This document shows positions 544 to 63,936 of a stretch of DNA of 64,000 nucleotides, piece after piece. The stretch is from a virus (taxonomy: Duplodnaviria > Caudoviricetes), in the IMG/VR virus record IMGVR_UViG_3300013121_000024, positions 1 to 64,000 of that record. One strand, written 5' to 3'. The notes under the pieces were generated by a model. That model worked only from the letters and a program-made list of their open reading frames with translations, was not told the origin of the DNA and did no database searches. The position numbers and the translations under genes were made by a program. The stretch's first letter is position 1. Each line of letters starts with the position of its first letter.

Positions 544-745
544 CTAGAAGACCTCTAATCTGGGTTTTTATTTTTTGTATTTCTTCCTTTAACTTTGCAA
601 TTTCTTTGCTCAGTCGGACAAGCTCTTTGTCTTTTTTCCGTTGCTCAACAAGCTTTTGAAATTCCTCGGCATTATTATTTAGGACCACACCAGTTGTGGT
701 ATTTTTGGTGAAACCATTTTTTACATTATTTATGTAATCTATCAT
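518..745 (-). CDS. Small coiled-coil virion-associated protein
   Basis: 75 aa with a TGVVLN motif followed by a heptad K/E/L tail. This type of small gene typically follows DUF4815-type genes in T4-like phages. Confidence 0.6.
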   Translation of the reverse strand: MIDYINNVKNGFTKNTTTGVVLNNNAEEFQKLVEQRKKDKELVRLSKEIAKLKEEIQKIKTQIRGLLDEQSINTI

Positions 746-762
746 TTAGATGATTCCTTGAA

Positions 763-3297: not shown

Positions 3298-3311
3298 TCT
3301 GTTAGTATCCT

Positions 3312-8513: not shown

Positions 8514-8522
8514 GATTTTCCC

Positions 8523-10529: not shown

Positions 10530-13030
10530 GTTGTTATTTCCAGTGTCCTAATGTTTGGTTTGGTTGTTCCATTTTTCTGTGTGTAAACTAGAGTACCAAA
10601 GTATTTAGTACCAGCTATGTGCATTATTTTTCTCAGTGAGTTTTCATACTTTTCCAATTCCAGTGAGGACCTGATATCATAAGAGAACTCCTGGTAGTAA
10701 TATCCATCCCTTAGTTTATTAACATCTGACAGGAATCCGTTTCTATCTGCATAAAACCCCTCGGATGATCCGTGTGTCCGAACTAATCCTATTCCTCTTC
10801 CAGTGGTACCTGTGTTTCCTGATGGTGAAAAGTATAGATATTCACCATCGGTAAAATTGAATCCGGAATCAGTGATTTTAATAGAATTTACAGCACCATT
10901 ACCGGTAATTAAGGTAGCATCCACTAATGCATTAACACCTGTATATTTTGAACTAAAGTCGGTAGCTACATAAACCACATTTGCTGTTGTTCCAGAAGTT
11001 TCTCCTACTAGAACACTTGTTGGTCCTGTTGTGGTTTCGAAGAGGTTTTGAGGAAGAACCCGCAAATTCTCAACAACACACTTGTTTGTGCCCGAGTCAA
11101 ATGATGTTACAAGACCTCTACCATTGCTACTTTCTTGTGTGAGAATTTCTCCTGTTATGAATTCTCCGGACACATCTTCCAATTCTAGAACCAAATTCTG
11201 AGCTTTCATCATATAACCATAACGATCATATATTAGAACAAATGGTGGTGCATTGTAATCGGTGCCAGGATTAAGTCCCATCAACAAGGTTTCTTTGCCG
11301 AATGTTATTATTTGTGTGGTTAGTAATTCATTTACCGGTGTGCTGGAGTTTCCAGATGGATTTGCTGGAAATCCATAAGTGCTGGCATTTCCTGGAGTAG
11401 AAATATAATCGGATATTTGATCTGTATCAACTGTAACATCTTCTGTATAAATTAGATTATTGGAATTCACATTCACGGAAGCACCAGAACCTGTTGAAAT
11501 AAAAGATATCGTACCATTCACGAAACTGGATGTTACAAAATTTCCTGTGGTAGAGATAAAATCGTTGTCTATCCCGATTACACCTATGTTGACATTCTGT
11601 GATACGACGTTGCTAGTATTCAAAAGATTGTCGGTGGAGTATAACGTCTCGTTCTGAACAAACACACCAGCCACGTTGCTCAATTGCAACAGTCTTGCTC
11701 CTGTTATATTATTTGAGTACCGTAATACATTACCATTAGCAGTCTCATTCATAAAAACGTCCTTTTGGTATACACGGTCACCCACGGTATAATCCGATGA
11801 ATTCCCATTGACAACCAAAGTTAGAGTGGTGGAATAACCAATTACATTAGCCGTGGTTACACTATTGAAAACTCCATTAGAGACGGTTAGGTTGGCTCCA
11901 ACAGAGTTTCCAACTCCATATATGGCGAGATTGCCAAATCCTCCTGATACCAATTGTATTGTAAGTATACCATTGGTAGCTGTGGAATTAGAGGCCGCAA
12001 CGATATAACCCTCGGCTTCTATTTCATTATTTGCATAGTAGGAATATACATTTTGGCCTACTGAAAACGCTCCATTAGCATTTGTGTAATTTAGGTAATA
12101 TGTTGGTTGTGTTATTGTGTCAAACAAATCGAAGTAGGTATTGGAGTTGGTATTCGTTATACATAAATTGGATACCGTCAAGTATTTTTCTGATACAAAA
12201 ACTTCTGTTGCGTTGGAATAACCATATCCACCATTTACTAGTTCAAATTCCGCCAATCCTGAAACATTTTCTATGCCGGTAACGATACCCTTAGCTCCGA
12301 ACCCCGTGGAAGAGTATATGTCCAATTTATCACCCACGGCGAAATTGTAGCCAGTTCCTTGTAAGTCGATGTCAACATCGGATAATGATCCTACTATTGT
12401 CGGACATTCTTCCATGGTCAAACCAGAATTGGCCGAATTAACAAGTTCGCCCGTTTCGAATGTTCCGGAGAGTGAGGAAATATAGAGCACATCCAACAGA
12501 CGTCTGTTGGATGATGTTCTAACGGCTCTTTCCACGAATGCCGTCGCACCCGATTTAGAACCAACAATTTCTTTATGTACTAGTGCCGACAGGTTTTCGT
12601 TCAATGAGACTTCCAAGTATTTTGGAATTACCCATTTACCAGAACTTGCCTTGAATAGATCGGTGCTTGGATAATACACCTCTGCACCATGTCCGTATTC
12701 AGCTCGTAAAAGCAGATCAATTCCTCTTTCGGTACCCTTGGACCGATATAGGTCTAGTGAATGCTTTAATAATTGTCTTGTTTTTACACTGGAATCTAAT
12801 GCTATTCCATTGAGATACTTTTGTTTGAAGTAAACCAGGAATTCATCTATGGTCTCGTCTATATCCTTCATTTCAAGGAATCGACGGTTGTAATAGAGTG
12901 GGTTATTCTCGGATTCCAGCCATTCCATATAGTACTTGAAGAATTTTACAAACCTAGGACCTTCATCCCTGTATAGTGCAGGGAATTGTGATTCAATAAG
13001 AGGTGATATATTTTTCTGGATTACGTCCAT
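10526..13030 (-). CDS. gp7: Baseplate wedge initiator gp7
   Basis: N-terminal SQFP...F..YY.WLE, LYRSKGT..I..L, ASSGKW. C-terminal D.YYYQEFSY.I.S....H.AGTKYFG. Confidence 0.85.
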   Translation of the reverse strand: MDVIQKNISPLIESQFPALYRDEGPRFVKFFKYYMEWLESENNPLYYNRRFLEMKDIDETIDEFLVYFKQKYLNGIALDSSVKTRQLLKHSLDLYRSKGTERGIDLLLRAEYGHGAEVYYPSTDLFKASSGKWVIPKYLEVSLNENLSALVHKEIVGSKSGATAFVERAVRTSSNRRLLDVLYISSLSGTFETGELVNSANSGLTMEECPTIVGSLSDVDIDLQGTGYNFAVGDKLDIYSSTGFGAKGIVTGIENVSGLAEFELVNGGYGYSNATEVFVSEKYLTVSNLCITNTNSNTYFDLFDTITQPTYYLNYTNANGAFSVGQNVYSYYANNEIEAEGYIVAASNSTATNGILTIQLVSGGFGNLAIYGVGNSVGANLTVSNGVFNSVTTANVIGYSTTLTLVVNGNSSDYTVGDRVYQKDVFMNETANGNVLRYSNNITGARLLQLSNVAGVFVQNETLYSTDNLLNTSNVVSQNVNIGVIGIDNDFISTTGNFVTSSFVNGTISFISTGSGASVNVNSNNLIYTEDVTVDTDQISDYISTPGNASTYGFPANPSGNSSTPVNELLTTQIITFGKETLLMGLNPGTDYNAPPFVLIYDRYGYMMKAQNLVLELEDVSGEFITGEILTQESSNGRGLVTSFDSGTNKCVVENLRVLPQNLFETTTGPTSVLVGETSGTTANVVYVATDFSSKYTGVNALVDATLITGNGAVNSIKITDSGFNFTDGEYLYFSPSGNTGTTGRGIGLVRTHGSSEGFYADRNGFLSDVNKLRDGYYYQEFSYDIRSSLELEKYENSLRKIMHIAGTKYFGTLVYTQKNGTTKPNIRTLEITT

Positions 13031-32940: not shown

Positions 32941-33396
32941 TCATCGTTTTTGCAACTTCTGAAACTCAAATTCCGCCCAGAGCGCTTTACGGGTAGAGTC
33001 CGAAAGGCTTAATATAGCAGTTTTCGGGTCCACGTCAAGTAACATAGCAACATAATTGGCCCTTGTTATTGGGTGGTCAATCTTGGAGTTGATGAAAAAG
33101 TCTCGTATTGTTTCGCCCTTTGTTACCGGATATCTATTGACAGGTCCGGCCACGGTTTTTTCCACATTCTTGGTTTCAGTGACGGAAACTGGTGCTTCTG
33201 TACTGGTAATAGGAACTTCCTTTTTCCAATCAAGAGATATTATAATTATTAGAAACACTAATATACCAGATATTCCGCCTATTTTTCCCATTCTTTTCAA
33301 TCGACCCTTTGGATCAAAAGGATTGCTGGCCGCGGAAGATACTTTTGGCGTTTTGGTTGTTGGTTTTTTGGGTTTTGTGGTTTTAGTACGTTCCAT
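32941..33396 (-). CDS. Single-pass membrane protein
   Basis: Basic N-terminus followed by hydrophobic segment GISGILVFLIIIISL. Confidence 0.55.
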   Translation of the reverse strand: MERTKTTKPKKPTTKTPKVSSAASNPFDPKGRLKRMGKIGGISGILVFLIIIISLDWKKEVPITSTEAPVSVTETKNVEKTVAGPVNRYPVTKGETIRDFFINSKIDHPITRANYVAMLLDVDPKTAILSLSDSTRKALWAEFEFQKLQKR

Positions 33397-33423
33397 TTAA
33401 ATTTTTTTCCTCTATATAAACGC

Positions 33424-33795
33424 AAAAAGGAGGGTTTTCTGTTGCCAGGTAAACCCTCCAAACCCCGTTCGATCAGGCAGCTAGTGCCATATCTCCCATG
33501 TGCCAGTTATCATTGGCATCTATGATGTGCGCCTTTAACGACGGTCGCCTTACGGATAACTCCACGTTTTCTTTTGTTTACTGTCGATCCTATTTCGCCC
33601 CCATCAGGGATACATTAATGACAAATTTTCACCTGCTTTGTCTTTCAACCACCCACAGGCACCTTTATCGCAGACTTGGGCAATATTTCTATTGCTGGGA
33701 TGAACACGGCATAATTAATGTATCCTTGGTGAAGGCGCCGGGTATCGCACCCGGGTCCAGCAAAACTACTTGAACACGCTTCAACGTTATCAGTC
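33424..33795 (-). ncRNA. ssrA: Permuted (two-piece) tmRNA
   Basis: Minus strand: acceptor piece ending ...GACCCGGGTGCGATACCCGGCGCCTTCACCA (3' end 33727), an intervening segment, then the coding piece starting GGGGGCGAAATAGGATCGAC (33602) with a G3.U70 pair. Tag ORF ANDNWHMGDMALAA* at 33517-33473, then a terminal hairpin and U-run. 5' end approximate. Confidence 0.92.
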
Positions 33796-33809
33796 TCTTA
33801 TTTAGTATT

Positions 33810-34097
33810 TTACTCCTCGCCACCATCTTCCGGTAACATACCAAGAGCATGTTTATAGACTTCCAAGATGGAATCGAATTCTACAACTTCAATATGTGAT
33901 TTTTTTCGTATCTTAATTAGTTCTTTCATGGCTTTGGTGTTGAATCCGGCACTTTTAGCTTCAGAAAATTTATCCCGAATGTCACTAGATATTCCGGCTT
34001 TGTCCTCCATCAACCTCTCAATTTGTTCAATATATTGCCTAAGTTGATTTTGTGTTGATTTTTGCAATGCGACGATTTCGGTGGCTTCTGTTGTCAT
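33810..34097 (-). CDS. gapR: GapR (DUF2312) nucleoid-associated protein
   Basis: QLRQYIE.IERL.E.K..I..DIRD.F.EAKS.GF..K.M..LI.IRK...ILE.Y..ALGM matches the GapR consensus. Confidence 0.9.
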   Translation of the reverse strand: MTTEATEIVALQKSTQNQLRQYIEQIERLMEDKAGISSDIRDKFSEAKSAGFNTKAMKELIKIRKKSHIEVVEFDSILEVYKHALGMLPEDGGEE

Positions 34098-41298: not shown

Positions 41299-41475
41299 GA
41301 TATGGGTGTCCTTTGGGTTGTATTGTTGTCAATGATCAGTAATTGTCATTTTCAGGGGGGTACTTTTTACATAATTGGCCACCAACCACACCTACCAGTG
41401 CGATTACAAGACCAATTAATATAAAAATTATAGCAGGAGACATAACTGTTTTCTTTCAGTTCTTAACTTAAGTTG

Positions 41476-41530
41476 AATAATAGAGGTTCCATCACGGATG
41501 GCAACCTCTATTATTCTTCAAGGATAACAA
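41476..41530. repeat. 55-bp direct repeat, copy 1 (palindromic early-promoter element)
   Basis: Identical to 42030-42084. Internal inverted repeat aataatagaggtt/aacctctattatt. Minus strand reads TTGCCA...TATTAT. Confidence 0.85.
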
Positions 41531-41534
41531 CGTG

Positions 41535-41735
41535 TTAAGCCGCCTCGGAAACTTCCGTGTCGTTCTGGTCCAATATTACATAGTGTTCAGCCAGCTTACG
41601 GAACTGGGGTACATGGGAATTGAGATGGTTTGCGATCAGTCGAAAGCAATCCTCCAGGACAGCGGACCTTAATACAGTCCGTTCTACAGTTATATTAGGG
41701 GTTTCTTCTTTGTATACAACCCTATACATTCCCAT
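41535..41735 (-). CDS. Hypothetical early protein
   Basis: 66 aa, AAGGA RBS, ends ...SEAA. Confidence 0.55.
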   Translation of the reverse strand: MGMYRVVYKEETPNITVERTVLRSAVLEDCFRLIANHLNSHVPQFRKLAEHYVILDQNDTEVSEAA

Positions 41736-41797
41736 GTTGTGGTGTCCTTTTTTGTTTGCTTGTGTTATCTGTCACATTAACTTATTTAGTACCAATT

Positions 41798-42018
41798 TTA
41801 TTCACCAAACAGTTCATTCCATTCTTCAGGTGTGATGCCTGTCATGATGAATTCACGGTCTTCTGGTGAAAGATTGGGCATTGCGTTTTGAATTAGCTCA
41901 CCAGCCCGCCAGGAATCAAGCTGTTCCTGCGTGACATCAATTTCCAATTGATGCATTTTACCAGTAAACGGCGATTTACGAACAATCTTCATCGTTTTGG
42001 TTCTTTCTTTCGCTTCAT
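41798..42018 (-). CDS. Conserved small phage protein
   Basis: MKIVRKSPFTGK...IQNAMPNLS..DREFIMTGITPEEW is a widespread small phage family. Start approximate (likely MKIVR near 41992). Confidence 0.6.
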
Positions 42019-42029
42019 AATTTATGTAT

Positions 42030-42084
42030 AATAATAGAGGTTCCATCACGGATGGCAACCTCTATTATTCTTCAAGGATAACAA
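42030..42084. repeat. 55-bp direct repeat, copy 2 (palindromic early-promoter element)
   Basis: Identical to 41476-41530. Confidence 0.85.
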
Positions 42085-42121
42085 TAAGTTATAAGAATTA
42101 CAACGGGGTGCAGCCAGGGTA

Positions 42122-42343
42122 TTATGTCTGTGTTACACTTGTCTTTATTATGTCGTGCACAACCGAATGAACGACCGCATGAACGGCCGCCAGGATGGCC
42201 GGGCCAACGGCCGAGCCAACGGCCGAGTAAACAGCCGAGTCAACGGCCGAGTAAACGGCTGAGCTAACGGCTAAGTTAACGGCCGAGTCAACGGTCGAGT
42301 GAACGTATAAGAAAACGACTGAATTTTTATAATTTTTATTCAC
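42122..42343 (-). CDS. xSAV repeat mini-protein
   Basis: ORF track; leader MNKNYKNS. Confidence 0.65.
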   Translation of the reverse strand: MNKNYKNSVVFLYVHSTVDSAVNLAVSSAVYSAVDSAVYSAVGSAVGPAILAAVHAVVHSVVHDIIKTSVTQT

Positions 42344-42545
42344 CTAGTTCTCCTGGGTCAACGACTGAGTTAACGGCTGAGTTAATGGCCGAGCCAACGG
42401 CTGAATTGAGGGCCCGGTAAACGGATGAGAAAACGGCCGAGTAAACGTCCCAGTAAACGGCCGAGTCAACGGCCGAGGCAACGGCCGAGTGAACGGTCCA
42501 GTAAACGGCCGAATCAACGACTGAATTTTTGTAATTATTATTCAC
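42336..42545 (-). CDS. xSAV repeat mini-protein
   Basis: ORF track; leader MNNNYKNS. Confidence 0.65.
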   Translation of the reverse strand: MNNNYKNSVVDSAVYWTVHSAVASAVDSAVYWDVYSAVFSSVYRALNSAVGSAINSAVNSVVDPGELGE

Positions 42546-42747
42546 TTAGGTCTCCTGAGTAAACGACGGATTCAACGGCCAAGTAAACGGCCGAGTCAAC
42601 GGCTGAATTGAGGGCCCGGTAAACGGATGAGAAAACGGCCGAGTCAACGGCTGGGTCAACGGCTGAGTGAATGACAGAGTTAACGGTTGAGGTAACGGCT
42701 AAGAGAACGGCTAAGCCAACGGTTGAATTTTGATAAATGTCATCCAT
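42538..42747 (-). CDS. xSAV repeat mini-protein
   Basis: ORF track; leader MDDIYQNS. Confidence 0.6.
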   Translation of the reverse strand: MDDIYQNSTVGLAVLLAVTSTVNSVIHSAVDPAVDSAVFSSVYRALNSAVDSAVYLAVESVVYSGDLSE

Positions 42748-42829
42748 TCATGTCCACCGAGTCAATATCCCAGTAAACGGCCGAGCTAACGGCCGAATCA
42801 ACGACTGAATTTTTGTAATTATTATCCAC
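42740..42829 (-). CDS. Short xSAV unit (29 aa)
   Basis: Manual translation: MDNNYKNSVVDSAVSSAVYWDIDSVDMNG*. Confidence 0.5.
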   Translation of the reverse strand: MDNNYKNSVVDSAVSSAVYWDIDSVDMNG

Positions 42830-43055
42830 TTAGGTCTCCTGAGTCAACGACTGAGCTAACGGCCGAGCTAACGGCCGAGCCAACGGCCGAGTGAACGGTC
42901 CAGTAAACGGCCGAGTAAACGGTTGAGGCCACGGCCGGGTCAACAGCCCAGTAAACGGCCGAGTCAACGGCCGAGTAAACGGTCAACTCAACGGCCGAGT
43001 CAACGGCCGAGCCAACAGCCGAGCCAACGGTTGAATTTTTGTAATTATTATCCAC
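42822..43055 (-). CDS. xSAV repeat mini-protein
   Basis: ORF track; leader MDNNYKNS. Confidence 0.65.
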   Translation of the reverse strand: MDNNYKNSTVGSAVGSAVDSAVELTVYSAVDSAVYWAVDPAVASTVYSAVYWTVHSAVGSAVSSAVSSVVDSGDLSG

Positions 43056-43269
43056 TTAGGTCTCCTGAGTAAACGACAGATTCAACGGCCAAGTAAACGG
43101 CCGAGCTAACGGCCGAGCCAACGGCCGAGCCAACGGCCGAGTGAACGTCACAGTAAACGGCTGAGCCAACGGCCGAGTGAACGGCTGAACAAACGGCCGA
43201 GCCAACGGCTGAGTAAACGGCCGAGCCAACGGCCGAGTTAACGTCTGAATTTTTATAATTTTTATCCAC
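43048..43269 (-). CDS. xSAV repeat mini-protein
   Basis: ORF track; leader MDKNYKNS. Confidence 0.65.
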   Translation of the reverse strand: MDKNYKNSDVNSAVGSAVYSAVGSAVCSAVHSAVGSAVYCDVHSAVGSAVGSAVSSAVYLAVESVVYSGDLSG

Positions 43270-43507
43270 TTAGTTCTCCTGAGTAAACGACAGATTCAAC
43301 GGCCAAGTCAACGGCCGAGGCAACGGCCGAGTTAACGGCCGAGTCAATGACCGAGGCAACGGCCAAGTAAACGGCCGAGTCAACGGCCGAGTAAACGGCC
43401 GAGTCAACGGCCGAGTAAACGGTCCAGTCAACGGCCGAGGAAACGGCCGAGTAAACGGCCGAGTGAACGGCTGAGTCAACGGCCGAATTTCTGTAATTGT
43501 TATCCAC
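43262..43507 (-). CDS. xSAV repeat mini-protein
   Basis: ORF track; leader MDNNYRNS, RBS CAGGAGA. Confidence 0.65.
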   Translation of the reverse strand: MDNNYRNSAVDSAVHSAVYSAVSSAVDWTVYSAVDSAVYSAVDSAVYLAVASVIDSAVNSAVASAVDLAVESVVYSGELSG

Positions 43508-43581
43508 TTAGGTCTCCTGGAGTGTCACGTCGTTGATAACGATTGTTCCACCACTAGACACTCATATGACTGATAATCATA

Positions 43582-43749
43582 TCAATCCAAATTAAAAGTG
43601 CCGGGAACCAACATATAAGACAGGTTTGGTTCAAGATTTCCGTAATTTTCCCAAATACGAAGATGGTGCATAAAAAAGTTCTCATTATAAGTTGCAGTCA
43701 GATACTCTCCTCCGGACTCGACTTCTGTTTGGAAGTATACAGTGTACAT
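43582..43749 (-). CDS. 55-aa hypothetical protein heading the array-1 operon
   Basis: Manual translation MYTVYFQTEVESGGEYLTATYNENFF...FNLD* with a GGAGAG RBS. Confidence 0.5.
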   Translation of the reverse strand: MYTVYFQTEVESGGEYLTATYNENFFMHHLRIWENYGNLEPNLSYMLVPGTFNLD

Positions 43750-43790
43750 GATATCTCTCCATGGAGTTCAACTAGGATTTAACTTCTAAA

Positions 43791-43819
43791 ACCTTACAAT
43801 ATACGATATTCAATGTCAA
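43791..43819 (-). promoter_or_regulatory. Sigma70-like early promoter upstream of array 1
   Basis: TTGACA-N17-TAAGGT. Confidence 0.6.
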
Positions 43820-44313
43820 CTAGAGTTTTTTTCAAGGATTTCAGTCTTCTGCCGTTTCATCCGGCGGCCGCGATGCCGGCTCTCACTCTCAATGGTTACC
43901 TTCTGGGTATACTTAAAGTAAAGTCCTACTTCCATACCGTAGGCCTCAATTTCAGCGGGAGAAAACCAATAATGATCTGATAAATCTTTTCTCATAACCA
44001 CAGGTGTGTTATACATTGTATTCTGGTTTTTTGCGAATTGTTTTATGTGGACTAGTTCATGGGCTAATGTTGATAATAAATCACTACGACGCATATTAGC
44101 CCGCAACTCAATGGTAAATTTTCTAGGATGTACCTCTTTATCATCATCTGAAACTGCACTACCCCTCACATCCAGCTTTTGTCTGTTAAATATTTTGATA
44201 TCCAATTTATCAATTATTCTTTTTGATAAAAGAAAAGGTAACCAGAAATTAACCGCATCCCTTATTTCTTTCTTCTCCACGTATTTTGGTTTTCCGTAAA
44301 TAGTTAGTCTCAC
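43816..44313 (-). CDS. Zn metallopeptidase-like protein (HExxH)
   Basis: TLAHELVHIKQ and YW..P.EIEAYG motifs. Confidence 0.75.
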   Translation of the reverse strand: MRLTIYGKPKYVEKKEIRDAVNFWLPFLLSKRIIDKLDIKIFNRQKLDVRGSAVSDDDKEVHPRKFTIELRANMRRSDLLSTLAHELVHIKQFAKNQNTMYNTPVVMRKDLSDHYWFSPAEIEAYGMEVGLYFKYTQKVTIESESRHRGRRMKRQKTEILEKNSS

Positions 44314-57186: not shown

Positions 57187-57261
57187 TGGAGCTCTAGTCC
57201 GGTTACGATCCGGAGTCTCCTCCTTACCAAGGAGGTATCTTAGCCATTGGACCACAAGAGC
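57187..57261 (-). tRNA. tRNA-Thr(GGT)
   Basis: Cloverleaf, anticodon arm CCTCC-TTGGTAA-GGAGG, encoded CCA. Confidence 0.85.
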
Positions 57262-57263
57262 AA

Positions 57264-57337
57264 TGGAACGGAATCCGGGTACTGCCCCCGAGCTTGAAGT
57301 GTGGCACACTCCCGTACTGCTATTATACTAATTCCGC
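57264..57337 (-). tRNA. tRNA-Gly(GCC)
   Basis: GCGGAAT acceptor, loop GTGCCAC, CCA. Atypical T loop. Confidence 0.75.
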
Positions 57338-57338
57338 A

Positions 57339-57415
57339 TGGAGATTCCAGCAGGATTTGAACCCGCAACCCTCTGGTTCGAAGCCAGATACTCTATCCGG
57401 TTGAGCTATGGAACC
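57339..57415 (-). tRNA. tRNA-Arg(TCG)
   Basis: TCTGG-CTTCGAA-CCAGA, GGTTCAAATCC, CCA. Confidence 0.9.
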
Positions 57416-57423
57416 ATGTTAGT

Positions 57424-57431
57424 TATTTATA
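57424..57431 (-). promoter_or_regulatory. Late promoter TATAAATA upstream of the Arg/Gly/Thr tRNAs
   Basis: Exact motif about 9 nt before tRNA-Arg(TCG). Confidence 0.55.
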
Positions 57432-57468
57432 TAATGTGCCAGTGAGTACCAGCACTATATATTCCTAA

Positions 57469-57544
57469 TGGCGGCGCTAGGGGGACTCGAACCCCCATGA
57501 TCCCTTACGGTATCATGTTTAGGAGACATGGCCGATATAGCGCT
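57469..57544 (-). tRNA. D-arm-less tRNA-like gene, anticodon CCT (Arg AGG)
   Basis: AGCGCTA-TATCGGC-CATGT-CTCCTAA-ACATG-long variable region-GGGGG TTCGAGT CCCCC-TAGCGCC-G-CCA. Confidence 0.7.
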
Positions 57545-57561
57545 ATAACTAAAAATCAATA

Positions 57562-57639
57562 TGGCGCTCCTGACAGGACTCGAACCTGTATCTATCCATT
57601 ATGCACCAGTCGCTTAGAAGGCGCGGCCAATACAGGAGC
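57562..57639 (-). tRNA. D-arm-less tRNA-like gene, anticodon TCT (Arg AGA)
   Basis: GCTCCTG-TATTGGC-CGCGC-CTTCTAA-GCG..-long variable region-ACAGG TTCGAGT CCTGT-CAGGAGC-G-CCA. Confidence 0.7.
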
Positions 57640-57643
57640 AAAT

Positions 57644-57735
57644 TGGTAGGCGTCCAGGGATTTGAACCCTGCCGTGAACGGTAATCTGCCGCTAAAGAGT
57701 TTATAAATCTCTCCTGCGCACCAGCGCCGACGCCC
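57644..57735 (-). tRNA. Atypical long-variable-arm tRNA, anticodon TAT (Ile AUA)
   Basis: GGGCGTC acceptor, mini D arm GCGC-TGGT-GCGC, loop TTTATAA, variable stem AGCGG/CCGTT, T arm, CCA. Confidence 0.7.
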
Positions 57736-57744
57736 ATGTTCTAT

Positions 57745-58203
57745 TTATTTAGACTCATTCTTTAACAAAGAGTCTGTGTAATTGTGTAATTCATCTTGCA
57801 ACTCACCGGAAAGAATATCAAAATCACGTTCAGAAAGAGCCTTCATATCCCCAATGGTAGCTTCGAGCGTGGTAATATAATCCTCTTGCGACGATGTTTT
57901 AGTCTTTAGTATATCTATAACATTTTCAAGTATAGAAAGAGCATTTAGTGCACCCCTGGCATTGAATAGGTCATACGCACTGGCTTGCCGTGAAACAGAT
58001 TCACGTTTTGCTTCATCGATGGTTAATTTACCCTCAGCCTCTAACCTTTTAAACGCAGAACTGAAAGGCCGAGATACCGGCATCATTAAAACTAACAAGG
58101 CGCGGATACCATCCATGCCGTACGGCATAGCCGTCTCTGCGTTGGTTGAGGTGTTGGTTTCAGTGTCCAAGTTTTCTGCGTTCATAATAAACTCTCCATG
58201 CAT
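57745..58203 (-). CDS. Hypothetical helical protein
   Basis: 152 aa ORF downstream of a sigma70-like promoter. Confidence 0.6.
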   Translation of the reverse strand: MHGEFIMNAENLDTETNTSTNAETAMPYGMDGIRALLVLMMPVSRPFSSAFKRLEAEGKLTIDEAKRESVSRQASAYDLFNARGALNALSILENVIDILKTKTSSQEDYITTLEATIGDMKALSERDFDILSGELQDELHNYTDSLLKNESK

Positions 58204-58243
58204 TAGGACTAAATTATAGTATTTTCATTCACTTAGTTTTTTT

Positions 58244-58272
58244 ACTGTAATATATTTGTGCTACCCTGTCAA
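58244..58272 (-). promoter_or_regulatory. Sigma70-like early promoter
   Basis: TTGACA-N17-TACAGT. Confidence 0.65.
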
Positions 58273-58303
58273 CCAGTAATTTTCGTCAAGTCTTTCAATG
58301 AGA

Positions 58304-58394
58304 TGGCGGAGGGCATCGTTCCCGCCACGAAGGCCAAATTAGAAGGCCCGCAACGCTTTCCAGGCGTGCCCGGGTCTCACCCGGTTTACCCTCC
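58304..58394 (-). tRNA. tRNA-Ser(GGA)
   Basis: Loop CTGGAAA, long variable arm, G discriminator + CCA. Atypical T loop. Confidence 0.75.
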
Positions 58395-58405
58395 ACAAAC
58401 AAGAA

Positions 58406-58496
58406 TGGAGGAAAAGTGGTGGTCTCGATCCCCAGTCCCGCAAAGGACCCAATCGCTTTCGAGGCGATGCCGGCGCGCCTGTCCGGTTACTTTTCC
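58406..58496 (-). tRNA. tRNA-Ser(CGA)
   Basis: ATCGC-CTCGAAA-GCGAT, long variable arm, CCA. Confidence 0.8.
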
Positions 58497-58517
58497 ATTA
58501 TTTTTTGTTCAGGATGT

Positions 58518-58766
58518 TCAGGAATTCCAATTTTCATCCTGAACAAAATCTTTAAAGGTGGAATTCTTCATTGATGGAGTTCGCATACTCCACCAATCTC
58601 TTCCATCTTGATTAAGGAAATATTCAAAATTGGCTTCCGGATTCATAGAATTTTCAATTTGACGACACGTATATAAAAACATCTGTTGTAGTTCTATTAA
58701 TTGAACACAAACATCCTTATATTTATCATCTAAGGAACGCTCTATTCTTAGAGTTTCTTTGACCAT
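58518..58766 (-). CDS. Hypothetical protein
   Basis: 82 aa ORF with an AAGGA RBS, between tRNAs. Confidence 0.5.
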   Translation of the reverse strand: MVKETLRIERSLDDKYKDVCVQLIELQQMFLYTCRQIENSMNPEANFEYFLNQDGRDWWSMRTPSMKNSTFKDFVQDENWNS

Positions 58767-58921
58767 TTCTTAATTCCTTACATTTAGAAAAATATCTCGT
58801 ATAAAATTAGTCCTATCCCCACACAAAAACACAGTCCAAGAATACCCATTAATACAAGAAATACCATATCAATATACAGCATCGGCGTCACCAACATAAT
58901 TTAGTCTACTATTTCTAAAAT

Positions 58922-58999
58922 TGGTACCTACAATGGGATTTGAACCCATACTATTTCCCCCCTCAAAGGAACGTCTCCTACCAGTTGGACTATGTAGGC
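58922..58999 (-). tRNA. tRNA-Leu(GAG), short variable loop
   Basis: TTCCT-TTGAGGG-GGGAA, GGTTCAAATCC, ACCA. Confidence 0.8.
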
Positions 59000-59007
59000 A
59001 TTTATTT

Positions 59008-59085
59008 TGGTGTCCGGAGAGGGATTCGAACCCTCAGATTCTCTTGCTTCTGAGGCAAGCGACTTTGCCGTTTGTCCACCCGGAC
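59008..59085 (-). tRNA. tRNA-Leu(CAG), short variable loop
   Basis: CTTGC-CTCAGAA-GCAAG, GGTTCGAATCC, ACCA. Confidence 0.85.
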
Positions 59086-59099
59086 TCTTTTTTTCTCAA

Positions 59100-59175
59100 T
59101 GGAGGGATCGGTGGGAATCAAACCCACATAAAACAGTTTTGCAGACTGCGCTATAATCACTCTAGCCACGATCCC
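59100..59175 (-). tRNA. tRNA-Cys(GCA)
   Basis: GCAGT-CTGCAAA-ACTGT, U discriminator + CCA. Confidence 0.85.
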
Positions 59176-59182
59176 GTTAATT

Positions 59183-59257
59183 TGGTCTAAACCGCGCGAG
59201 TCGAACGCGCACCTCTCACGCCCCAAACGTGATGGACTACCATTATCCCACGTTTAG
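59183..59257 (-). tRNA. tRNA-Pro(TGG)
   Basis: TCACG-TTTGGGG-CGTGA, CCA. Confidence 0.85.
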
Positions 59258-59286
59258 AATAGTCTTTATTTTTTCTCCTTCTAAGA

Positions 59287-59363
59287 TGGTCCGCGGCGCC
59301 GGATTCGAACCGACGATCTCCTGTTCCCGAAACAGGCGGATTACCTGCCTTTCCTAGCCGCGG
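59287..59363 (-). tRNA. tRNA-Pro(CGG)
   Basis: CCTGT-TTCGGGA-ACAGG, GGTTCGAATCC, CCA. Confidence 0.88.
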
Positions 59364-59580
59364 CTATATTATGAAGCTTGCCAATGATGGCCAATTTCTG
59401 CCACCAATTGAGCTTATGGTTCTTTTTAATATACAACTTCATTTGTTTGATGGTATATTTAGCATCAAACAAATTTGTGGAAAGAAATATTCTACGTTGT
59501 TTTTCTTTTTTTAGTTCAGCCTGTAATTTTGCATTTTCTTCCTGTAAAGAAATAAAAAGTTGTCTGAGACTTCCTCTCAT
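59341..59580 (-). CDS. Basic coiled-coil hypothetical protein
   Basis: 79 aa, AAGG RBS. 3' end overlaps tRNA-Pro(CGG). Confidence 0.45.
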   Translation of the reverse strand: MRGSLRQLFISLQEENAKLQAELKKEKQRRIFLSTNLFDAKYTIKQMKLYIKKNHKLNWWQKLAIIGKLHNIAAARKGR

Positions 59581-59595
59581 GTTTACCTTCTGAAT

Positions 59596-59683
59596 TGGAG
59601 GATCCGGTCGGACTCGAACCGACGGTGAGCTTTCGCTACCAGATTAAGAGTCTGGTGCCCTCGCCACTAGGCTAGACGGATCC
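59596..59683 (-). tRNA. tRNA-Lys(CTT) with long variable arm
   Basis: CCAGA-CTCTTAA-TCTGG, variable hairpin AGC-GAAA-GCT, T arm, CCA. Confidence 0.85.
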
Positions 59684-59692
59684 GTTTTTTAA

Positions 59693-59995
59693 CTATTTAG
59701 AACGTTTAAACTCCTCATACAAGCAATCTGCCTGATAAAGTGTTGCCAATAGATTAAGCCGATCAACGGGGTTCATAGAATGAACCTTCCATTGAGGAGG
59801 CCTTACACCATCATGAGACAAACGTTCTATTTCCATTGCTACCGGCATAGAAGTATCTTCACCACCGAGGTCATGGTCAAAGGAAATAATAGAAACCATG
59901 CCCGTTTTCAACACCAAAAGTGCATCATGGGAAGTTTTGGCCCAATGCCAAGAACCATCCGGTGGAGTCCTAATATCATCTATCCATAACTTCAT
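59693..59995 (-). CDS. Cyclic-phosphate-processing receiver domain protein
   Basis: LWIDDIR.PP, ISFDHDLG and HS.NP motifs. Confidence 0.8.
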   Translation of the reverse strand: MKLWIDDIRTPPDGSWHWAKTSHDALLVLKTGMVSIISFDHDLGGEDTSMPVAMEIERLSHDGVRPPQWKVHSMNPVDRLNLLATLYQADCLYEEFKRSK

Positions 59996-60024
59996 TGCAC
60001 ATCTCTATCTTCATCATATTGTTA

Positions 60025-60053
60025 ACTATACCAGCATAAGGTTGGTATGTCAA
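60025..60053 (-). promoter_or_regulatory. Sigma70-like early promoter
   Basis: TTGACA-N17-TATAGT. Confidence 0.72.
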
Positions 60054-60088
60054 TAACAAAAATCATAGAAATATCAATTTGTTAAGTA

Positions 60089-60271
60089 CTATATTGTTTC
60101 CACATTGGATATATCACATCCGTGGCGCCTTACACCAAATAACTTATCCAGGAAGTATCCTATTGGACCCACCCGTTTAGCACACAACGGACACTGATCA
60201 GGAACGACTACGGGAGCCCGCAGGTGCAGGCACCCGATATCAGTAACCACCCTTCGTTTGATAAACCACAT
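60089..60271 (-). CDS. Small Cys-containing hypothetical protein
   Basis: 60 aa, CPLC motif. Confidence 0.4.
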   Translation of the reverse strand: MWFIKRRVVTDIGCLHLRAPVVVPDQCPLCAKRVGPIGYFLDKLFGVRRHGCDISNVETI

Positions 60272-60273
60272 GA

Positions 60274-60744
60274 CTAGGCAGCCAACAGGTGGTCAGCGGC
60301 ATGTGTAGCAGCCCAAGCAGCCGGTTTTATCTCCGGACTAATGTCACATGTACCTTTGATATAACCGATGGCCTGTTGTACAACCTCGTTAGAGGCATAC
60401 CGCGGATTCGGATTGATATCCAGGTGCAGTTGGACTTCCCGATTAATTAGAACGTCATAGAGTGATAGATACATTTCCGACACTTTGTAACATTCTTGCA
60501 TCAATCGGTAATTCGGCTTTGGTTTACGGCCTGTAGCATAATCCTTTTCGGTTGTGATTTCATGAAAAATCTTACAACCATTCTTACCATTTATATGCAC
60601 AACGACAACGAGGCAATAATCGGCTACCCATTCACCATACTTCTTATATCTTTGGCTATCACAACCAATGTAAACCTTGGATTCCGGGCTTTGCTTATCG
60701 ATAAAAGATTTCACTTCTTCTAAGTCTAATTTTTTCCGTGCCAT
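60274..60744 (-). CDS. RNase H-like YkuK (DUF458) protein
   Basis: YIGCDSQ, RL..E, HLDIN, KP.AWAA..AAD motifs. Confidence 0.85.
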   Translation of the reverse strand: MARKKLDLEEVKSFIDKQSPESKVYIGCDSQRYKKYGEWVADYCLVVVVHINGKNGCKIFHEITTEKDYATGRKPKPNYRLMQECYKVSEMYLSLYDVLINREVQLHLDINPNPRYASNEVVQQAIGYIKGTCDISPEIKPAAWAATHAADHLLAA

Positions 60745-60778
60745 ATCAATTCACCCTGTTTTTTGCCTTTCTTTAGTG

Positions 60779-61582
60779 CTAGTTTGATTTTGGATCCCTA
60801 TCAGCGGTTCTGATAGTCCAAAAATCATTACATAACTCTGGATTATTTATGTGTTTATACTGCATATAATAGTATCCTTTATCACCACTCTCAAGTCCCC
60901 AAGAATTACGTACAATAAAGACTTTCTTAGTATCATCATATCCGACTAATAATACAGCATGACCACCCAAGGACTCATCATTATTCACATTTGGATAAGG
61001 CACATAACCACCATTAGAATCGGCCTCATAGAAAGAACTATATACGCTAAAACCAAATACTACCAGGTGGCCAGCGGCAAGGCAAGATTTAATATCTTCA
61101 AGCCTTTCATTGTGGATACGATAATAATCAGCAATTCTGTTGCGCAAGGCCACGTTGTATAGAGCACGCGGAGGCTGTTCGAATATCTTTTCTTCCTGGA
61201 ATGGCCATGAATCTTCAGATACATAACCATCATTAGAAAGAGTCTTAATCACATCACGGATTTCAGCTCCATTATCGAATTCCACACTATTCTCTATAAC
61301 TCGGGTATTATAATACATGAATAATCTTGAAGGTGCCATGTCAGGCATCTTGTGTATTCTACGCCCAAATTGTAATAAAGGACTTATAGCCTGTGCCGTA
61401 CAAGAGGAAGTTTCACCTTGATCGAAAATGATAGGCATATTCTTACCACGGTGATCGACTATTTTTGGTAGTGTTCTTTTTCTGTCTGCTGCTAATTTGT
61501 GTTCATGATATTTACGATCGCGAAAATCTGGACGGTCTCTTAACCAACCAAAATTGGTTGGTTTGTGTATGGTTTTTCCCAT
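60779..61582 (-). CDS. Papain-family (C1A) cysteine peptidase
   Basis: DQG.TSSCTA, SRLF.YYN.R, GGHAV..VGYDD and RNSWG motifs. Confidence 0.92.
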   Translation of the reverse strand: MGKTIHKPTNFGWLRDRPDFRDRKYHEHKLAADRKRTLPKIVDHRGKNMPIIFDQGETSSCTAQAISPLLQFGRRIHKMPDMAPSRLFMYYNTRVIENSVEFDNGAEIRDVIKTLSNDGYVSEDSWPFQEEKIFEQPPRALYNVALRNRIADYYRIHNERLEDIKSCLAAGHLVVFGFSVYSSFYEADSNGGYVPYPNVNNDESLGGHAVLLVGYDDTKKVFIVRNSWGLESGDKGYYYMQYKHINNPELCNDFWTIRTADRDPKSN

Positions 61583-61675
61583 ATTGTTATCTCCTGAATG
61601 TATATTCAATTACAGGAGTTATTTATTATGAATCACATCTTATTCGATTTAAATTTTAATACCCGATTGAACGAT

Positions 61676-61792
61676 CTAGTTGACAACCAAATAAATGTTT
61701 GAGTAAAGGCTTACACCCACCGGTGATATATCTTTGGCGATAGTCCAGTAAACGACCGAGTAAACGGCCGAATATTCGAAATTGTTATCCAC
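61676..61792 (-). CDS. Degenerate xSAV unit (38 aa)
   Basis: Manual translation: MDNNFEYSAVYSVVYWTIAKDISPVGVSLYSNIYLVVN*. Confidence 0.45.
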   Translation of the reverse strand: MDNNFEYSAVYSVVYWTIAKDISPVGVSLYSNIYLVVN

Positions 61793-61801
61793 TATACCTC
61801 A

Positions 61802-62017
61802 TTATCTAACAGCCCAGGAAACGGTCGAGTAAACGGCTGAGCCAACGGCTGAGCCAACGGCCGAGTAAACGGCCGAGCTAACGGCCGAGTAAACAGTCGA
61901 ACGAACGACCGAGCCAACGTCCCAGTCAACGGCCGAGCTAACGGCCGAGTTAACGGCTGCGTAAACGGCCGAGGAAACGTCTGAACAAACGGCCGAATAT
62001 TTGAAATTGTTATCCAC
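61802..62017 (-). CDS. xSAV repeat mini-protein
   Basis: Leader MDNNFKYS, GAGGT RBS. Confidence 0.65.
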   Translation of the reverse strand: MDNNFKYSAVCSDVSSAVYAAVNSAVSSAVDWDVGSVVRSTVYSAVSSAVYSAVGSAVGSAVYSTVSWAVR

Positions 62018-62023
62018 TATACC

Positions 62024-62326
62024 TCATGATCTAACAGTCGAGTTAACGGCTGAGTTAATGGCCGAGCCAACGGCTGAATTGAGGGCCCGGTAAACGGATG
62101 AGAAAACGGCCGAGTCAACGGCCGAGCGAACGGCCAAGCTAACGGCCGAGTCAACGGCCGAGTAAACGGCCGAGCGAACGGTCCAGTAAACGGCCGAGTC
62201 AACGGCCGAGTCAAGGGCCGAGTAAACGGCCGAGTCAACGGCCGAGTCAAGGGCCGAGCCAACGGCCGAGTAAACGGCTGAGCTAACGGCCGAGTCAACG
62301 GCCGAATATTTGAAATTGTTATCCAC
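62024..62326 (-). CDS. xSAV repeat mini-protein
   Basis: Leader MDNNFKYS, GAGGT RBS. Confidence 0.65.
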   Translation of the reverse strand: MDNNFKYSAVDSAVSSAVYSAVGSALDSAVDSAVYSALDSAVDSAVYWTVRSAVYSAVDSAVSLAVRSAVDSAVFSSVYRALNSAVGSAINSAVNSTVRS

Positions 62327-62333
62327 TTATACC

Positions 62334-62564
62334 TCATGATCTAACGGCCGAGTCAACGGCCGAGCGAACGGCCAAGCTAACGGCCGAGTCAACGGCCGAG
62401 CGAACGGCCAAGCTAACGGCCGAGTCAACGGCCGAGTAAACGGCTGAGCTAACGGCCGAGTCAACGGCCGAGTAAACGGCTGAGCTAACGGCCGAGTCAA
62501 CGGCCGAGTAAACGGCTGAGCTAACGGCTAAGTTAACGGCCGAATATTCGAAATTGTTATCCAC
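62334..62564 (-). CDS. xSAV repeat mini-protein
   Basis: Leader MDNNFEYS, GAGGT RBS. Confidence 0.65.
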   Translation of the reverse strand: MDNNFEYSAVNLAVSSAVYSAVDSAVSSAVYSAVDSAVSSAVYSAVDSAVSLAVRSAVDSAVSLAVRSAVDSAVRS

Positions 62565-62571
62565 TTATACC

Positions 62572-62826
62572 TCATGATCTAACGGCCGAGATAACGGCCG
62601 AACGAACGGTTAAGGCAACAGCCGAGCCGACGGAGGCACCGGCGGCCGAGCGAACGACCGAGCCAACGACCGAGGCAACGGCCGAGTCAACGGCTGAGTA
62701 AACGGCTGAGCTAACGGCCGAGTCAACGGTAGAGTAAACAGCCGAGTAAACAGCCGAGTCAACGGCCGAGTAAACGGCTGAGCTAACGGCTAAGTTAACG
62801 GCCGAATATTCGAAATTGTTATCCAC
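62572..62826 (-). CDS. xSAV repeat mini-protein
   Basis: Leader MDNNFEYS, GAGGT RBS. Confidence 0.65.
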   Translation of the reverse strand: MDNNFEYSAVNLAVSSAVYSAVDSAVYSAVYSTVDSAVSSAVYSAVDSAVASVVGSVVRSAAGASVGSAVALTVRSAVISAVRS

Positions 62827-62919
62827 TTATACCTCATGATCTAACAGTCGAGGAAACGGTCGAGGCCTCACACTTCAGTGGAACTCAGTAGTTCTCCCAG
62901 TAAATGGTCTGAATATTTT

Positions 62920-63675
62920 TTATAAGTTGGCAGCCTGTACATGCATCCAATCAAAATCTCTAGTTCTTCCGAGAGACGTCCAACCCTCAGATTCCCACAA
63001 TTCCCACCATTTGTTATATTCCGGTTGAGCAAATCTGGCTTTACGGTGATCCAATCTCATTTCATTATGCTCGGCATCCCAATCGATTGCTATTCCCCAT
63101 GAGTGCATGCTGTATGAGTTACCACCTCTCATCTTTCGAACATTTAAGCTACCAGACCAAAGATCGAGACCAAGTCGCCTAATTTCATCGATGCCATAGT
63201 GTTTAAGGACCGCCTTGAGTACTCTATTTGCACTAGGAGCGACTTTCTTGTGTAAAGAGAACCGCTCTACTAATATTTTTGGAGACCAAGAAATCTTACA
63301 CTGATAAGGCAACTCTAACATAACCTGGTTCTCACCCACATCACCATAAAATTCATAAACATCTTTTTGGAAAGGCCATTGGTTATCTGTTGTGTTATTT
63401 ACTTCTGAACTTTTACCGGAGTCTCTTACTTGTTGATTTTGGAATTCTTCAAGTGCCTTATAATAAACTGGGCCCATAAACCCATCTATGCGGCCACTAT
63501 AAAAACTGGACATCATGACCTGTTGGACACCGACTGATAGTCGTGCATTGTTCCAGCCATCGGTATCAACGCCTCGTGATTCTAGTAAATCTTTGGCGGC
63601 CTCTCGTGTCTTAGGACCCCATTTGCCATCCGGAACCTGTCCCAGAAACTCCTGTACCTGTCTACTAGCAATCAC
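62920..63675 (-). CDS. M15 peptidase with peptidoglycan-binding domains (endolysin)
   Basis: DG.WGP.T and IDG..GP PG-binding motifs; R..RGG..SMHSWGIAID and DWMHVQ M15 motifs. Start reassigned to GTG 63675 (AAGGA RBS) because the longer ORF runs through tRNA-Ala. Confidence 0.9.
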   Translation of the reverse strand: MIASRQVQEFLGQVPDGKWGPKTREAAKDLLESRGVDTDGWNNARLSVGVQQVMMSSFYSGRIDGFMGPVYYKALEEFQNQQVRDSGKSSEVNNTTDNQWPFQKDVYEFYGDVGENQVMLELPYQCKISWSPKILVERFSLHKKVAPSANRVLKAVLKHYGIDEIRRLGLDLWSGSLNVRKMRGGNSYSMHSWGIAIDWDAEHNEMRLDHRKARFAQPEYNKWWELWESEGWTSLGRTRDFDWMHVQAANL

Positions 63676-63704
63676 CGTGATATCCTTTTTGTTTTTATTG
63701 AAAT

Positions 63705-63780
63705 TGGTGGAGCCTAAGGGGATCGAACCCTTCCCTCCGCATTGCAAGTGCGGCGCGCCGCCCACGGCCACTGAGACCCC
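63705..63780 (-). tRNA. tRNA-Ala(TGC)
   Basis: GGGG acceptor with G3.U70, CCGCA-CTTGCAA-TGCGG, ACCA. Confidence 0.85.
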
Positions 63781-63786
63781 ATTAAA

Positions 63787-63936
63787 TGGTATGCGAAACA
63801 GGATTTGATACCTGTAATGTCCATCGTCCATTGCATTTATACTATCCTAAAGTTATCCTAGGTTCTCAGGATACTTAATACAACGCCAACAAACCTCCCG
63901 GCTAACCCGGGCGAGTCTACATTCCTCCATTCGCAT
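63787..63936 (-). ncRNA. 150-nt tRNA-like RNA with large insertion
   Basis: ATGCGAA/TTCGCAT acceptor + ACCA, D-like arm GAG..CTC, CCCGG-GTTAG-CCGGG hairpin, about 80-nt insert, T-like arm ACAGG-TATCAAAT-CCTGT. Confidence 0.65.

Follow-up and report, generated by a model that had tools for sequence, protein, structure and literature searches.

Why does a phage genome carry two tandem arrays of very short genes built from the same four-residue repeat, and what might their products do? The question concerns the initial 64 kb (64,000 nucleotides, here called the window) of the IMG/VR virus record IMGVR_UViG_3300013121_000024, which is 150,379 bp in size with a completeness estimate of 83%. A T4-type major capsid protein (PF07068, E 1.3e-149) and 29 tRNAs are encoded, and the record was therefore assigned to a large uncultured T4-like phage. 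Twelve mini-genes, seven in array 1 and five in array 2, would encode small, acidic, helical proteins made almost wholly of xSAV tetrads, in which x varies. These units are very probably real genes, derived from the central tetrad tract of the DUF6745 proteins (PF20530), a family also encoded by this phage. For docking of the mini-proteins on DUF6745 the case is evenly balanced, and a role in setting target specificity is doubtful. The joint reading, which we favour with modest confidence, is that of coupled, tract-derived mini-genes whose products dock in trans and provide a dozen variants of one DUF6745 complex.

Two arrays of tetrad-repeat mini-genes

Array 1 was composed of seven open reading frames (ORFs) of 29-81 aa on the minus strand (42122-43507), and all seven ORFs that the sequence-only reading had described, with a shared leader and an xSAV core, were present. 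Mini-gene 1 (43262..43507) encodes 81 aa with a net charge of -8 and was the partner chain of the complex model given below. Mini-genes 2 (43048..43269, 73 aa), 3 (42822..43055, 77 aa) and 4 (42740..42829, 29 aa, truncated) each have the 8-nt overlap GTGGATAA; mini-gene 5 (42538..42747, 69 aa) has an ATG start, the overlap ATGGATGA and a weak ribosome-binding site; mini-gene 6 (42336..42545, 69 aa) has the overlap GTGAATAA and holds a 76-nt exact block in common with array 2; and mini-gene 7 (42122..42343, 73 aa), the last unit, has a divergent tail. Start and stop overlapped by exactly 8 nt at 6/6 junctions (GTGGATAA three times, GTGAATAA twice, ATGGATGA once). Six units started with GTG and one with ATG, and GGAGA was located 5 nt 5' of the start in 6/7, in line with the ribosome-binding site proposed for most units. 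The leader M-D/N-x-x-Y-x-N-S, followed by xSAV tetrads, was found in 7/7 units, and the SG(D/E)LS(G/E)-type tail, also proposed for most units, in 5/7 when the near-variant PGELGE was counted. The tails (SGDLSG) and the first two to three leader codons appear to be dictated largely by the ribosome-binding site and the overlap, and would be translation signals more than protein motifs. Protein lengths were all 1 mod 4 (7/7); the size differences are therefore whole 12-bp units, which agrees with the frame-preserving 12-bp indels described previously. A reading of the array as one long gene, continued by +1 frameshifting at the junctions, was rejected, as re-pairing in +1 is impossible at the Gly codon GGA that precedes the stop, and as a separate ribosome-binding site and start are present at every junction.

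Array 2 comprised five minus-strand ORFs (61676-62826) of 84 aa (62572..62826), 76 aa (62334..62564), 100 aa (62024..62326), 71 aa (61802..62017) and 38 aa (61676..61792, decayed). The separate leader (MDNNF(E/K)YS) and tail (VRS) reported for this sister array were recovered, and the count of 7 + 5 units matches the estimate of about 12 variant mini-proteins. Units were non-overlapping and spaced 6-9 nt apart, with GAGGT before each GTG, so the 8-nt overlap once ascribed to the units in general holds in array 1 but not in array 2. The leaderless remnant of a further unit (62830..62870, minus strand), ending ...STVSSTVRS and then a stop, provides the ribosome-binding-site context for the first array 2 gene. 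No xSAV arrays beyond these two were found when the whole 150-kb genome was scanned. Both are G+C-rich (0.53-0.55) relative to the window (0.40), as had been noted. As far as can be judged from the sequence, the starts, ribosome-binding sites, stops, 8-nt overlaps and shared strand with the neighbouring genes argue for a translationally coupled family of variant peptides, as first suggested.

The promoter placed upstream of array 1 (TTGACA-N17-TAAGGT) survived in part. The sigma-70-like site, read directly from the sequence, is present (43791..43819, minus strand), sharing bases with the stop codon of the HExxH gene upstream, but it has a weak -10 element, was absent from the promoter-scan output, and is situated ~280 nt upstream of the array with a 55-aa ORF between (43582..43749, minus strand). 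That ORF has its own GGAGAG ribosome-binding site and had no Pfam or PADLOC match.

An independent short-read assembly (L058; Logan SRR34260825, 5820-5923) was identical to the record through the DUF6745, partner and endolysin genes and ended 11 nt into the first array 2 gene, at the first junction cassette. It supports the entry into array 2, and the internal unit number is outside its reach. The arrays evidently break short-read assemblies; because of this, and because small-ORF filters discard such units, they are probably under-counted.

Both arrays are built on the 12-bp unit NNC-TCG-GCC-GTT. Across 185 in-frame tetrads, S was second in 142, A third in 129 and V fourth in 160, and x was any of 16 different residues. 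Entropy over the same tetrads was 1.87 and 1.39 bits at x codon positions 1 and 2, and 0.4-1.2 bits at the other ten positions. When the 102 exact xSAV tetrads were considered, non-consensus bases made up 46.6% at x positions 1 and 2 vs. 9.3% at the four synonymous sites (Fisher odds ratio 8.5, P = 1e-24, a P value inflated by the relatedness of the tetrads). At its third base x keeps C: TAC and GAC made up 89% and 94% in the arrays vs. ~30% genome-wide, and TCG accounted for 69% of codons at the Ser position (98/142) vs. 10% genome-wide. Taken from these sequences, the simplest reading of the variation would be that a single founder unit was recently amplified and its copies then changed at x under selection; the alternative would be continuing homogenisation together with selection for diversity at x. 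Although 20 kb apart, the arrays share exact blocks of 76 and 65 nt, which we read as exchange of sequence between them. Tailoring of the phage tRNAs to the arrays was considered separately and rejected: the 29 include Ala-GGC, Val-GAC, Asp, Asn and His but none for Ser, Tyr or Gly, and the set is too broad.

The mini-proteins were acidic (net charge 0 to -8; pI 4.1-4.7 in 11/12). Tract charge differs widely among lineages, from basic (RSAV in L009, a DUF6745 protein) to acidic, hence charge is not a conserved property of the tract; mimicry of DNA by acidic helices was rejected for the same range of charge. The hydrophobic moment of the units was 0.07-0.68 at 100 degrees vs. 0.74-1.55 at 90 degrees. 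Given the low moment at 100 degrees, the Val/Ala stripe would spiral round a straight alpha-helix, a geometry better suited to a helix bound by a partner than to a free amphipathic one. Kyte-Doolittle maxima over 19 residues ranged from 0.6 to 1.73 and were above 1.6 in two units only (1.69 and 1.73), with Asp or Arg in most windows.

The DUF6745 tract and a predicted complex

Searches with the mini-proteins gave only below-threshold compositional matches in Pfam (Pardaxin, Perilipin, Gly-zipper, DUF826) and none to PF20530, no match in PHROGs, and weak compositional matches to one nuclease model in PADLOC; a near-length search of the 81-aa unit against 5.8 billion proteins gave none at E <= 1e-3. 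A profile of the 12 units, searched against 1.84 billion representative proteins, retrieved 700 proteins at E <= 1e-3. The query is of low complexity and many matches are compositional; among the best 149, 65 carried the DUF6745 C-domain and most others were low-complexity noise. The link to internal four-residue repeats of DUF6745-associated proteins, made in the sequence-only reading, was right and proved central: the same xSAV tract is found in the proteins of loci L009 and L035-L038. The repeat is otherwise known only inside DUF6745 proteins, and the accompanying remark that stand-alone arrays are not its usual form also stood.

DUF6745 homologues numbered 236 at E <= 1e-10, from uncultured phages and prophages, and a clear tract was seen in 63/120 of the closest (types included xSAV, xSQV, xDSV, xGAV and xxAT). 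In a typical member the tract lies between an N-terminal (~75 aa) and a C-terminal (~200 aa) domain in one polypeptide; the L009 protein (373 aa, PF20530 E 3e-43) has 18 tetrads. The L035 and L036 proteins are ~93% identical outside the tract; inside it, the sole differences are indels (5 and 2 whole tetrads) and substitutions at x. The mini-genes (29-100 aa, own start and stop) have neither the flanking domains nor a PF20530 match, and their products are therefore not DUF6745 proteins but only tract homologues. They resemble the tracts of this family (PF20530, phrog_31813-type; L035/L036, L037/L038, L009) in the xSAV tetrad with Y, D, N, G or R at x, in whole-tetrad indels, x substitutions and helical prediction, and in the presence of DUF6745 and its phrog_27831 partner in the genome. 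They differ in that the repeat here stands alone twelve times, each time with its own start, ribosome-binding site and stop, and in that the resident DUF6745 has a degenerate, non-repetitive segment instead.

Multiple frames are open across the repeats, and openness alone is little informative. Shadow ORFs cross the two arrays on either strand as a side effect of the 12-bp period and could be mis-called as genes; one of 106 aa (62017-62337, minus strand, +1 frame of array 2) reads (T/A)RP(L/F) repeats. The xSAV frame was identified by three independent lines of evidence. In L009 and L035-L038, the conserved N- and C-terminal domains of DUF6745 flank the same repeat and share its reading frame. 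Its amino acids are conserved while its codons are lineage-specific: SAV is TCG GCC GTT here and in L009, TCC GCC GTG in L035/L036, TCG GCG GTG in L037/L038 and TCG GCT GTT/ATT in L053, a marine array of mini-genes; the constraint is therefore on protein and not on DNA. In L053 the other five frames hold 82-398 stops over 8.3 kb.

The L053 contig (ENA ERZ23486232 scaffold_10378, 1-8832), found by the 12-unit profile search, is 8.8 kb long with 0.37 G+C and consists entirely of at least 40 mini-genes of 31-139 aa, with the leader MSKTDI, xSA(V/I) tetrads, the tail (R/K)xEIYE and 8-nt ATGAGTAA overlaps. This array was present in two or more assemblies (L053, L054) and is far larger than those of the window. 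Back-to-back coupled mini-genes of a four-residue repeat with 8-nt overlaps are common to both, whereas the window arrays have few units (7 + 5) and are G+C-rich. Mini-ORF arrays were not found within 10 kb of the tract-bearing loci L009, L035-L039 and L045-L050; period-4 mini-ORFs do occur in the tract-less L040-L044 group. The loci compared were few and not systematically drawn. In L043, a tract-less 317-aa DUF6745 and its partner (9560-10906) lie ~6 kb from three period-4 mini-ORFs of the D-x-L/I-x type (86, 72 and 73 aa; 3592-4290, minus strand). The gene immediately downstream of these is a homologue of phrog_20898 (45% identity, E 2e-17), which matches the synteny of array 1. No xSAV array was present in the flanks of the HExxH gene in 23 distant relatives.

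The DUF6745 of this phage is encoded just past the window end (genome 66559-67737, minus strand; 392 aa, PF20530 E 2.7e-29, with a PF20530 match of E 5.4e-31 at genome 66583-67089). It aligns end to end with the tract-bearing L035/L036 proteins, among its closest relatives (49-53% identity), and where these have (xSAV)12-18 it has ~95 residues with no DNA repeat. Hydrophobic residues occupy every fourth position of this central segment in 20/28 tetrads vs. 8/29 in another register, so the resident tract is degenerate rather than absent. The AlphaFold2 model had a mean predicted local distance difference test score (pLDDT) of 87.5 and a predicted template modelling score of 0.80, and residues 61-173 formed four packed helices. 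Searches with the model gave no PDB match at E <= 0.001 with Foldseek and only generic helical bundles in a wide VIA-align search (best Z 7.3, residues 61-173 only); PADLOC gave no match for DUF6745, and a protein search of deposited phages gave two partial matches only. Use of the arrays as silent donor cassettes for conversion into DUF6745 was also considered and rejected, as the units have their own translation signals and the resident gene has no receiving repeat.

The complex of the resident DUF6745 (alignment A3) and the 81-aa unit (alignment A4) was modelled in three runs with three controls. The interaction prediction score from aligned errors (ipSAE) was 0.79, 0.80 and 0.48 (median 0.79), and the best of the three controls was 0.00. 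The mark applied is reached by 58/80 solved complexes and 2/110 mismatched pairs, counts that are rough here as custom alignments were used. Runs agreed in at least 29% of contacts, and partner pLDDT was at least 64. Mini-protein residues 8-62 ran along DUF6745; the best contacts were from repeat residues V18, V22, V34, V38, A41, V42, A45 and V46 to DUF6745 residues 19-24 and 184-193, the x residues also made contact, and the free residues were mostly at the Ser position. The constant V/A/S face with an exposed variable residue, proposed earlier, does not fit this one model, in which V and A pack on DUF6745, x touches it too and Ser is free. The model supports binding without proving it.

In the explanation favoured here, the mini-genes would be free-standing, multiplied copies of the central DUF6745 tract: the repetitive, fast-changing part would have moved to the mini-genes and left the resident DUF6745 with a degenerate, non-repetitive version. 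In their evolution the arrays would gain or lose whole 12-bp units, exchange sequence with each other and change at a strongly accelerated rate at x positions 1 and 2. The mini-proteins would be made and would dock in trans, with the Val/Ala stripe in a DUF6745 groove formed by N-terminal helix 16-27 and helix 185-196; one phage would then have a dozen variants of one complex, and the variable x residue may tune host recognition by that complex. A more speculative extension, which we put forward only tentatively, is a trans-acting diversity system: a conserved core of DUF6745 and its partner would accept any member of a set of hypervariable single-helix adaptors, whose x residues (Y, D, N, S, G, H, R) would be a code specifying the host or defence target of the complex, and this set would be renewed by slippage, inter-array conversion and positive selection with no reverse transcriptase. 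Provided that the mini-proteins are produced and do bind DUF6745, the system would represent a new viral route to protein diversity without reverse transcriptase, in which an internal hypervariable repeat was freed, multiplied as a coupled micro-gene library and supplied in trans, and it would give a first handle on DUF6745, a widespread family with no assigned function. Searches of the literature (DUF6745, PF20530, tetrapeptide-repeat terms) returned nothing relevant; DUF6745 was named in none of the roughly 8.4 million papers covered, and nothing comparable is described in the literature searched.

The partner gene follows that of DUF6745 (genome 66185-66562; 125 aa with the motif HSETGHNH; phrog_27831 E 1.2e-12 at 66188-66544). 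Partner and DUF6745 C-domain share a stretch FI-V...P-G-K...G...HSETG (pairwise E 0.05; G000:C1 66185-67737, L033 1103-2655), and an ESM Atlas model of the partner superposes on a DUF6745 cluster (TM 0.72 by query). Judging by these resemblances, the partner is possibly paralogous to a portion of DUF6745. A metal site is hinted at by conserved His, Asp and Trp-His-Gly residues together with the HSETG motif common to the partner and the DUF6745 C-terminal domain (~residues 214-385). In a temperate-type phage (L056 10001-11541; L057), a tract-bearing DUF6745 and its partner open the early operon beside Cro/YdaS-like and GcrA-like genes, followed by AAA_24 and HNH. By analogy with this first position, an early, host-directed role of DUF6745 could be envisaged.

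Weighing the explanations

Several observations count against the trans-docking of tract-derived mini-proteins. Array codon use is far from the phage norm, which fits recent amplification or import, and the arrays are possibly young and untried by selection. The units of 29 and 38 aa are truncated or decayed. Distances of 3.7 kb (array 2) and 23 kb (array 1) separate the arrays from the DUF6745 gene, which lies upstream of both; the arrays are therefore not adjacent to it and co-regulation is not evident. The helical segment at the tract site of the resident DUF6745 is folded (pLDDT 73-90) with nothing obviously missing, and in a tract-bearing relative (P0002) the tract was predicted as a long helical hairpin at a pLDDT of only ~42. 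The passing score of the complex model may reflect likeness to the intramolecular tract of homologues in the alignment and training data. No close relative of the arrays was retrieved by megablast, exact look-up or metagenome pattern scans.

It is rather unlikely, in our estimate, that the mini-proteins are made but act without DUF6745, as self-associating helices, as decoys or sponges for host sensors, or as membrane-active lysis helpers. The distance of both arrays from the DUF6745 gene, the position of array 2 between endolysin and papain-like peptidase genes, and the L053 contig, which is all mini-genes with no DUF6745 on its 8.8 kb, would suit such a role, as would the hydropathy maxima of 1.69 and 1.73 in two units and the weak, below-cut-off compositional matches to pardaxin and glycine-zipper models. 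The restriction of the repeat elsewhere to DUF6745 proteins (the 65 of the best 149 profile matches with the C-domain) and the presence of DUF6745 and its partner in the same genome argue otherwise. Most units have Asp every 4-8 residues, a charge of -2 to -8 and hydropathy below 1.6, which seems ill suited to a transmembrane helix, and a simple amphipathic surface helix is disfavoured by the spiralling stripe (moment 0.07-0.68 at 100 degrees). Precursor arrays of ribosomally synthesised and post-translationally modified peptides (RiPPs) were also compared: the leader here has 8 residues only and is partly forced by the overlap, and no known RiPP maturase family was among the neighbours.

The arrays could instead be a by-product, a detached repeat and junction cassette amplified by slippage or unequal recombination with little or no translation and no benefit to the phage. 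Atypical, near-uniform codons that point to recent amplification from one founder unit, the truncated 29- and 38-aa units with the leaderless remnant, and the several other open frames are what this would predict. We regard it as improbable, since a start, a ribosome-binding site and the frame are kept in 12/12 units, the length differences in array 1 are all multiples of 12 nt, and x positions 1 and 2 change five-fold above synonymous sites, unlike neutral decay. In L053, moreover, at least 40 diverged units have stayed open in the xSA(V/I) frame against 82-398 stops in the other five, and adjacency to phrog_20898 is shared with L043, where the repeat type differs. A function of the 12-bp repeats as DNA or RNA (iterons, an origin, a packaging or recombination site, or structured RNA), with incidental ORFs, seems very remote. 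The arrays are G+C-rich islands in an A+T-rich genome, and every unit has the palindrome CGGCCG, and neighbouring units can pair; but the unit is conserved across lineages as amino acids and not as bases, the junction cassettes hold a ribosome-binding site, start and stop at fixed spacing, the same repeat occurs inside long ORFs elsewhere, and Rfam gave no match at E <= 0.1 in 41300-44000.

Similarly far-fetched is diversification of the x codons by a diversity-generating retroelement (AAC to NNC), with the arrays as its variable regions. As in such variable regions, only the first two bases of the NNC codons vary and the rest of the frame is constant, the third C is nearly fixed, the ten constant consensus positions are without adenine, and AAC and AAT are among the x codons. 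Here, however, the variable codon recurs every 12 nt in tandem units, and a search for reverse transcriptase (PF00078) was negative for the 150-kb genome, at its 83% completeness, and for five virus records with a tract, of which one is complete and has terminal repeats. The third base is fixed family-wide but differs (NNC here, NNT in L053), the two variable x positions behave unlike each other, with A retained in 22% of tetrads at position 1 and in 66% at position 2, only G and A alternate at the Ser wobble, and no unit had Asn (AAC) at every x, a template of this kind not having been sought by a dedicated pairwise search. A looser parallel is the hypervariable internal-protein (ip) locus of T-even phages, where, reportedly, several small genes of one orientation change fast and share a short conserved N-terminal leader, in a plastic part of the T4-like genome. 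The ip genes are said to be mutually unrelated beyond the leader and not to be repeats, whereas the first two to three leader codons here are largely forced by the overlap.

Neighbouring genes and other features

Megablast against deposited phages gave no match for the region, the endolysin had no relatives among viral contigs, and exact look-up of two window proteins returned nothing on record. Of two metagenome pattern scans, the first gave no match and the second only chance matches (L060, L061). From 38 to 72 kb nearly all genes are on the minus strand. Array 1 is preceded by a gene for an HExxH protein (DUF6782-like, phrog_10499; 43816-44313). Array 2 is directly preceded upstream by the endolysin gene (62920..63831, minus strand; phrog_17001 E 1.7e-80; Pfam PG_binding_1 and Peptidase_M15_4) and followed by a papain-family cysteine peptidase gene (60779-61609; PF00112, E 1.2e-13); a PD-(D/E)XK nuclease gene is also among the array neighbours. 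In the tRNA-dense region, 25/29 of the genome tRNAs are located within 57-75 kb (window 57187-63780, genome up to 75249), and array 2, the endolysin gene and the DUF6745 pair are all inside it.

Downstream of array 1 is a phrog_20898 gene (41798..42058, minus strand; PHROG E 1.2e-28), whose true start is likely an ATG near 41992. Between array 1 and this gene is an inverted repeat of ~40 nt (42030..42069, minus strand), and an identical second copy was found at 41476-41515. The arms read AATAATAGAGGTT... and ...AACCTCTATTATT, with the inner stem CCATC...GATGG. Each copy is just 3' of a minus-strand gene and has sigma-70-like hexamers within; it is possibly a phage-specific terminator or RNA-processing element. 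Elsewhere in the window, ARAGORN reported a permuted candidate resembling transfer-messenger RNA (33382-33819, minus strand), which overlaps called ORFs and has the tag peptide ANDNWHMGDMALAA.

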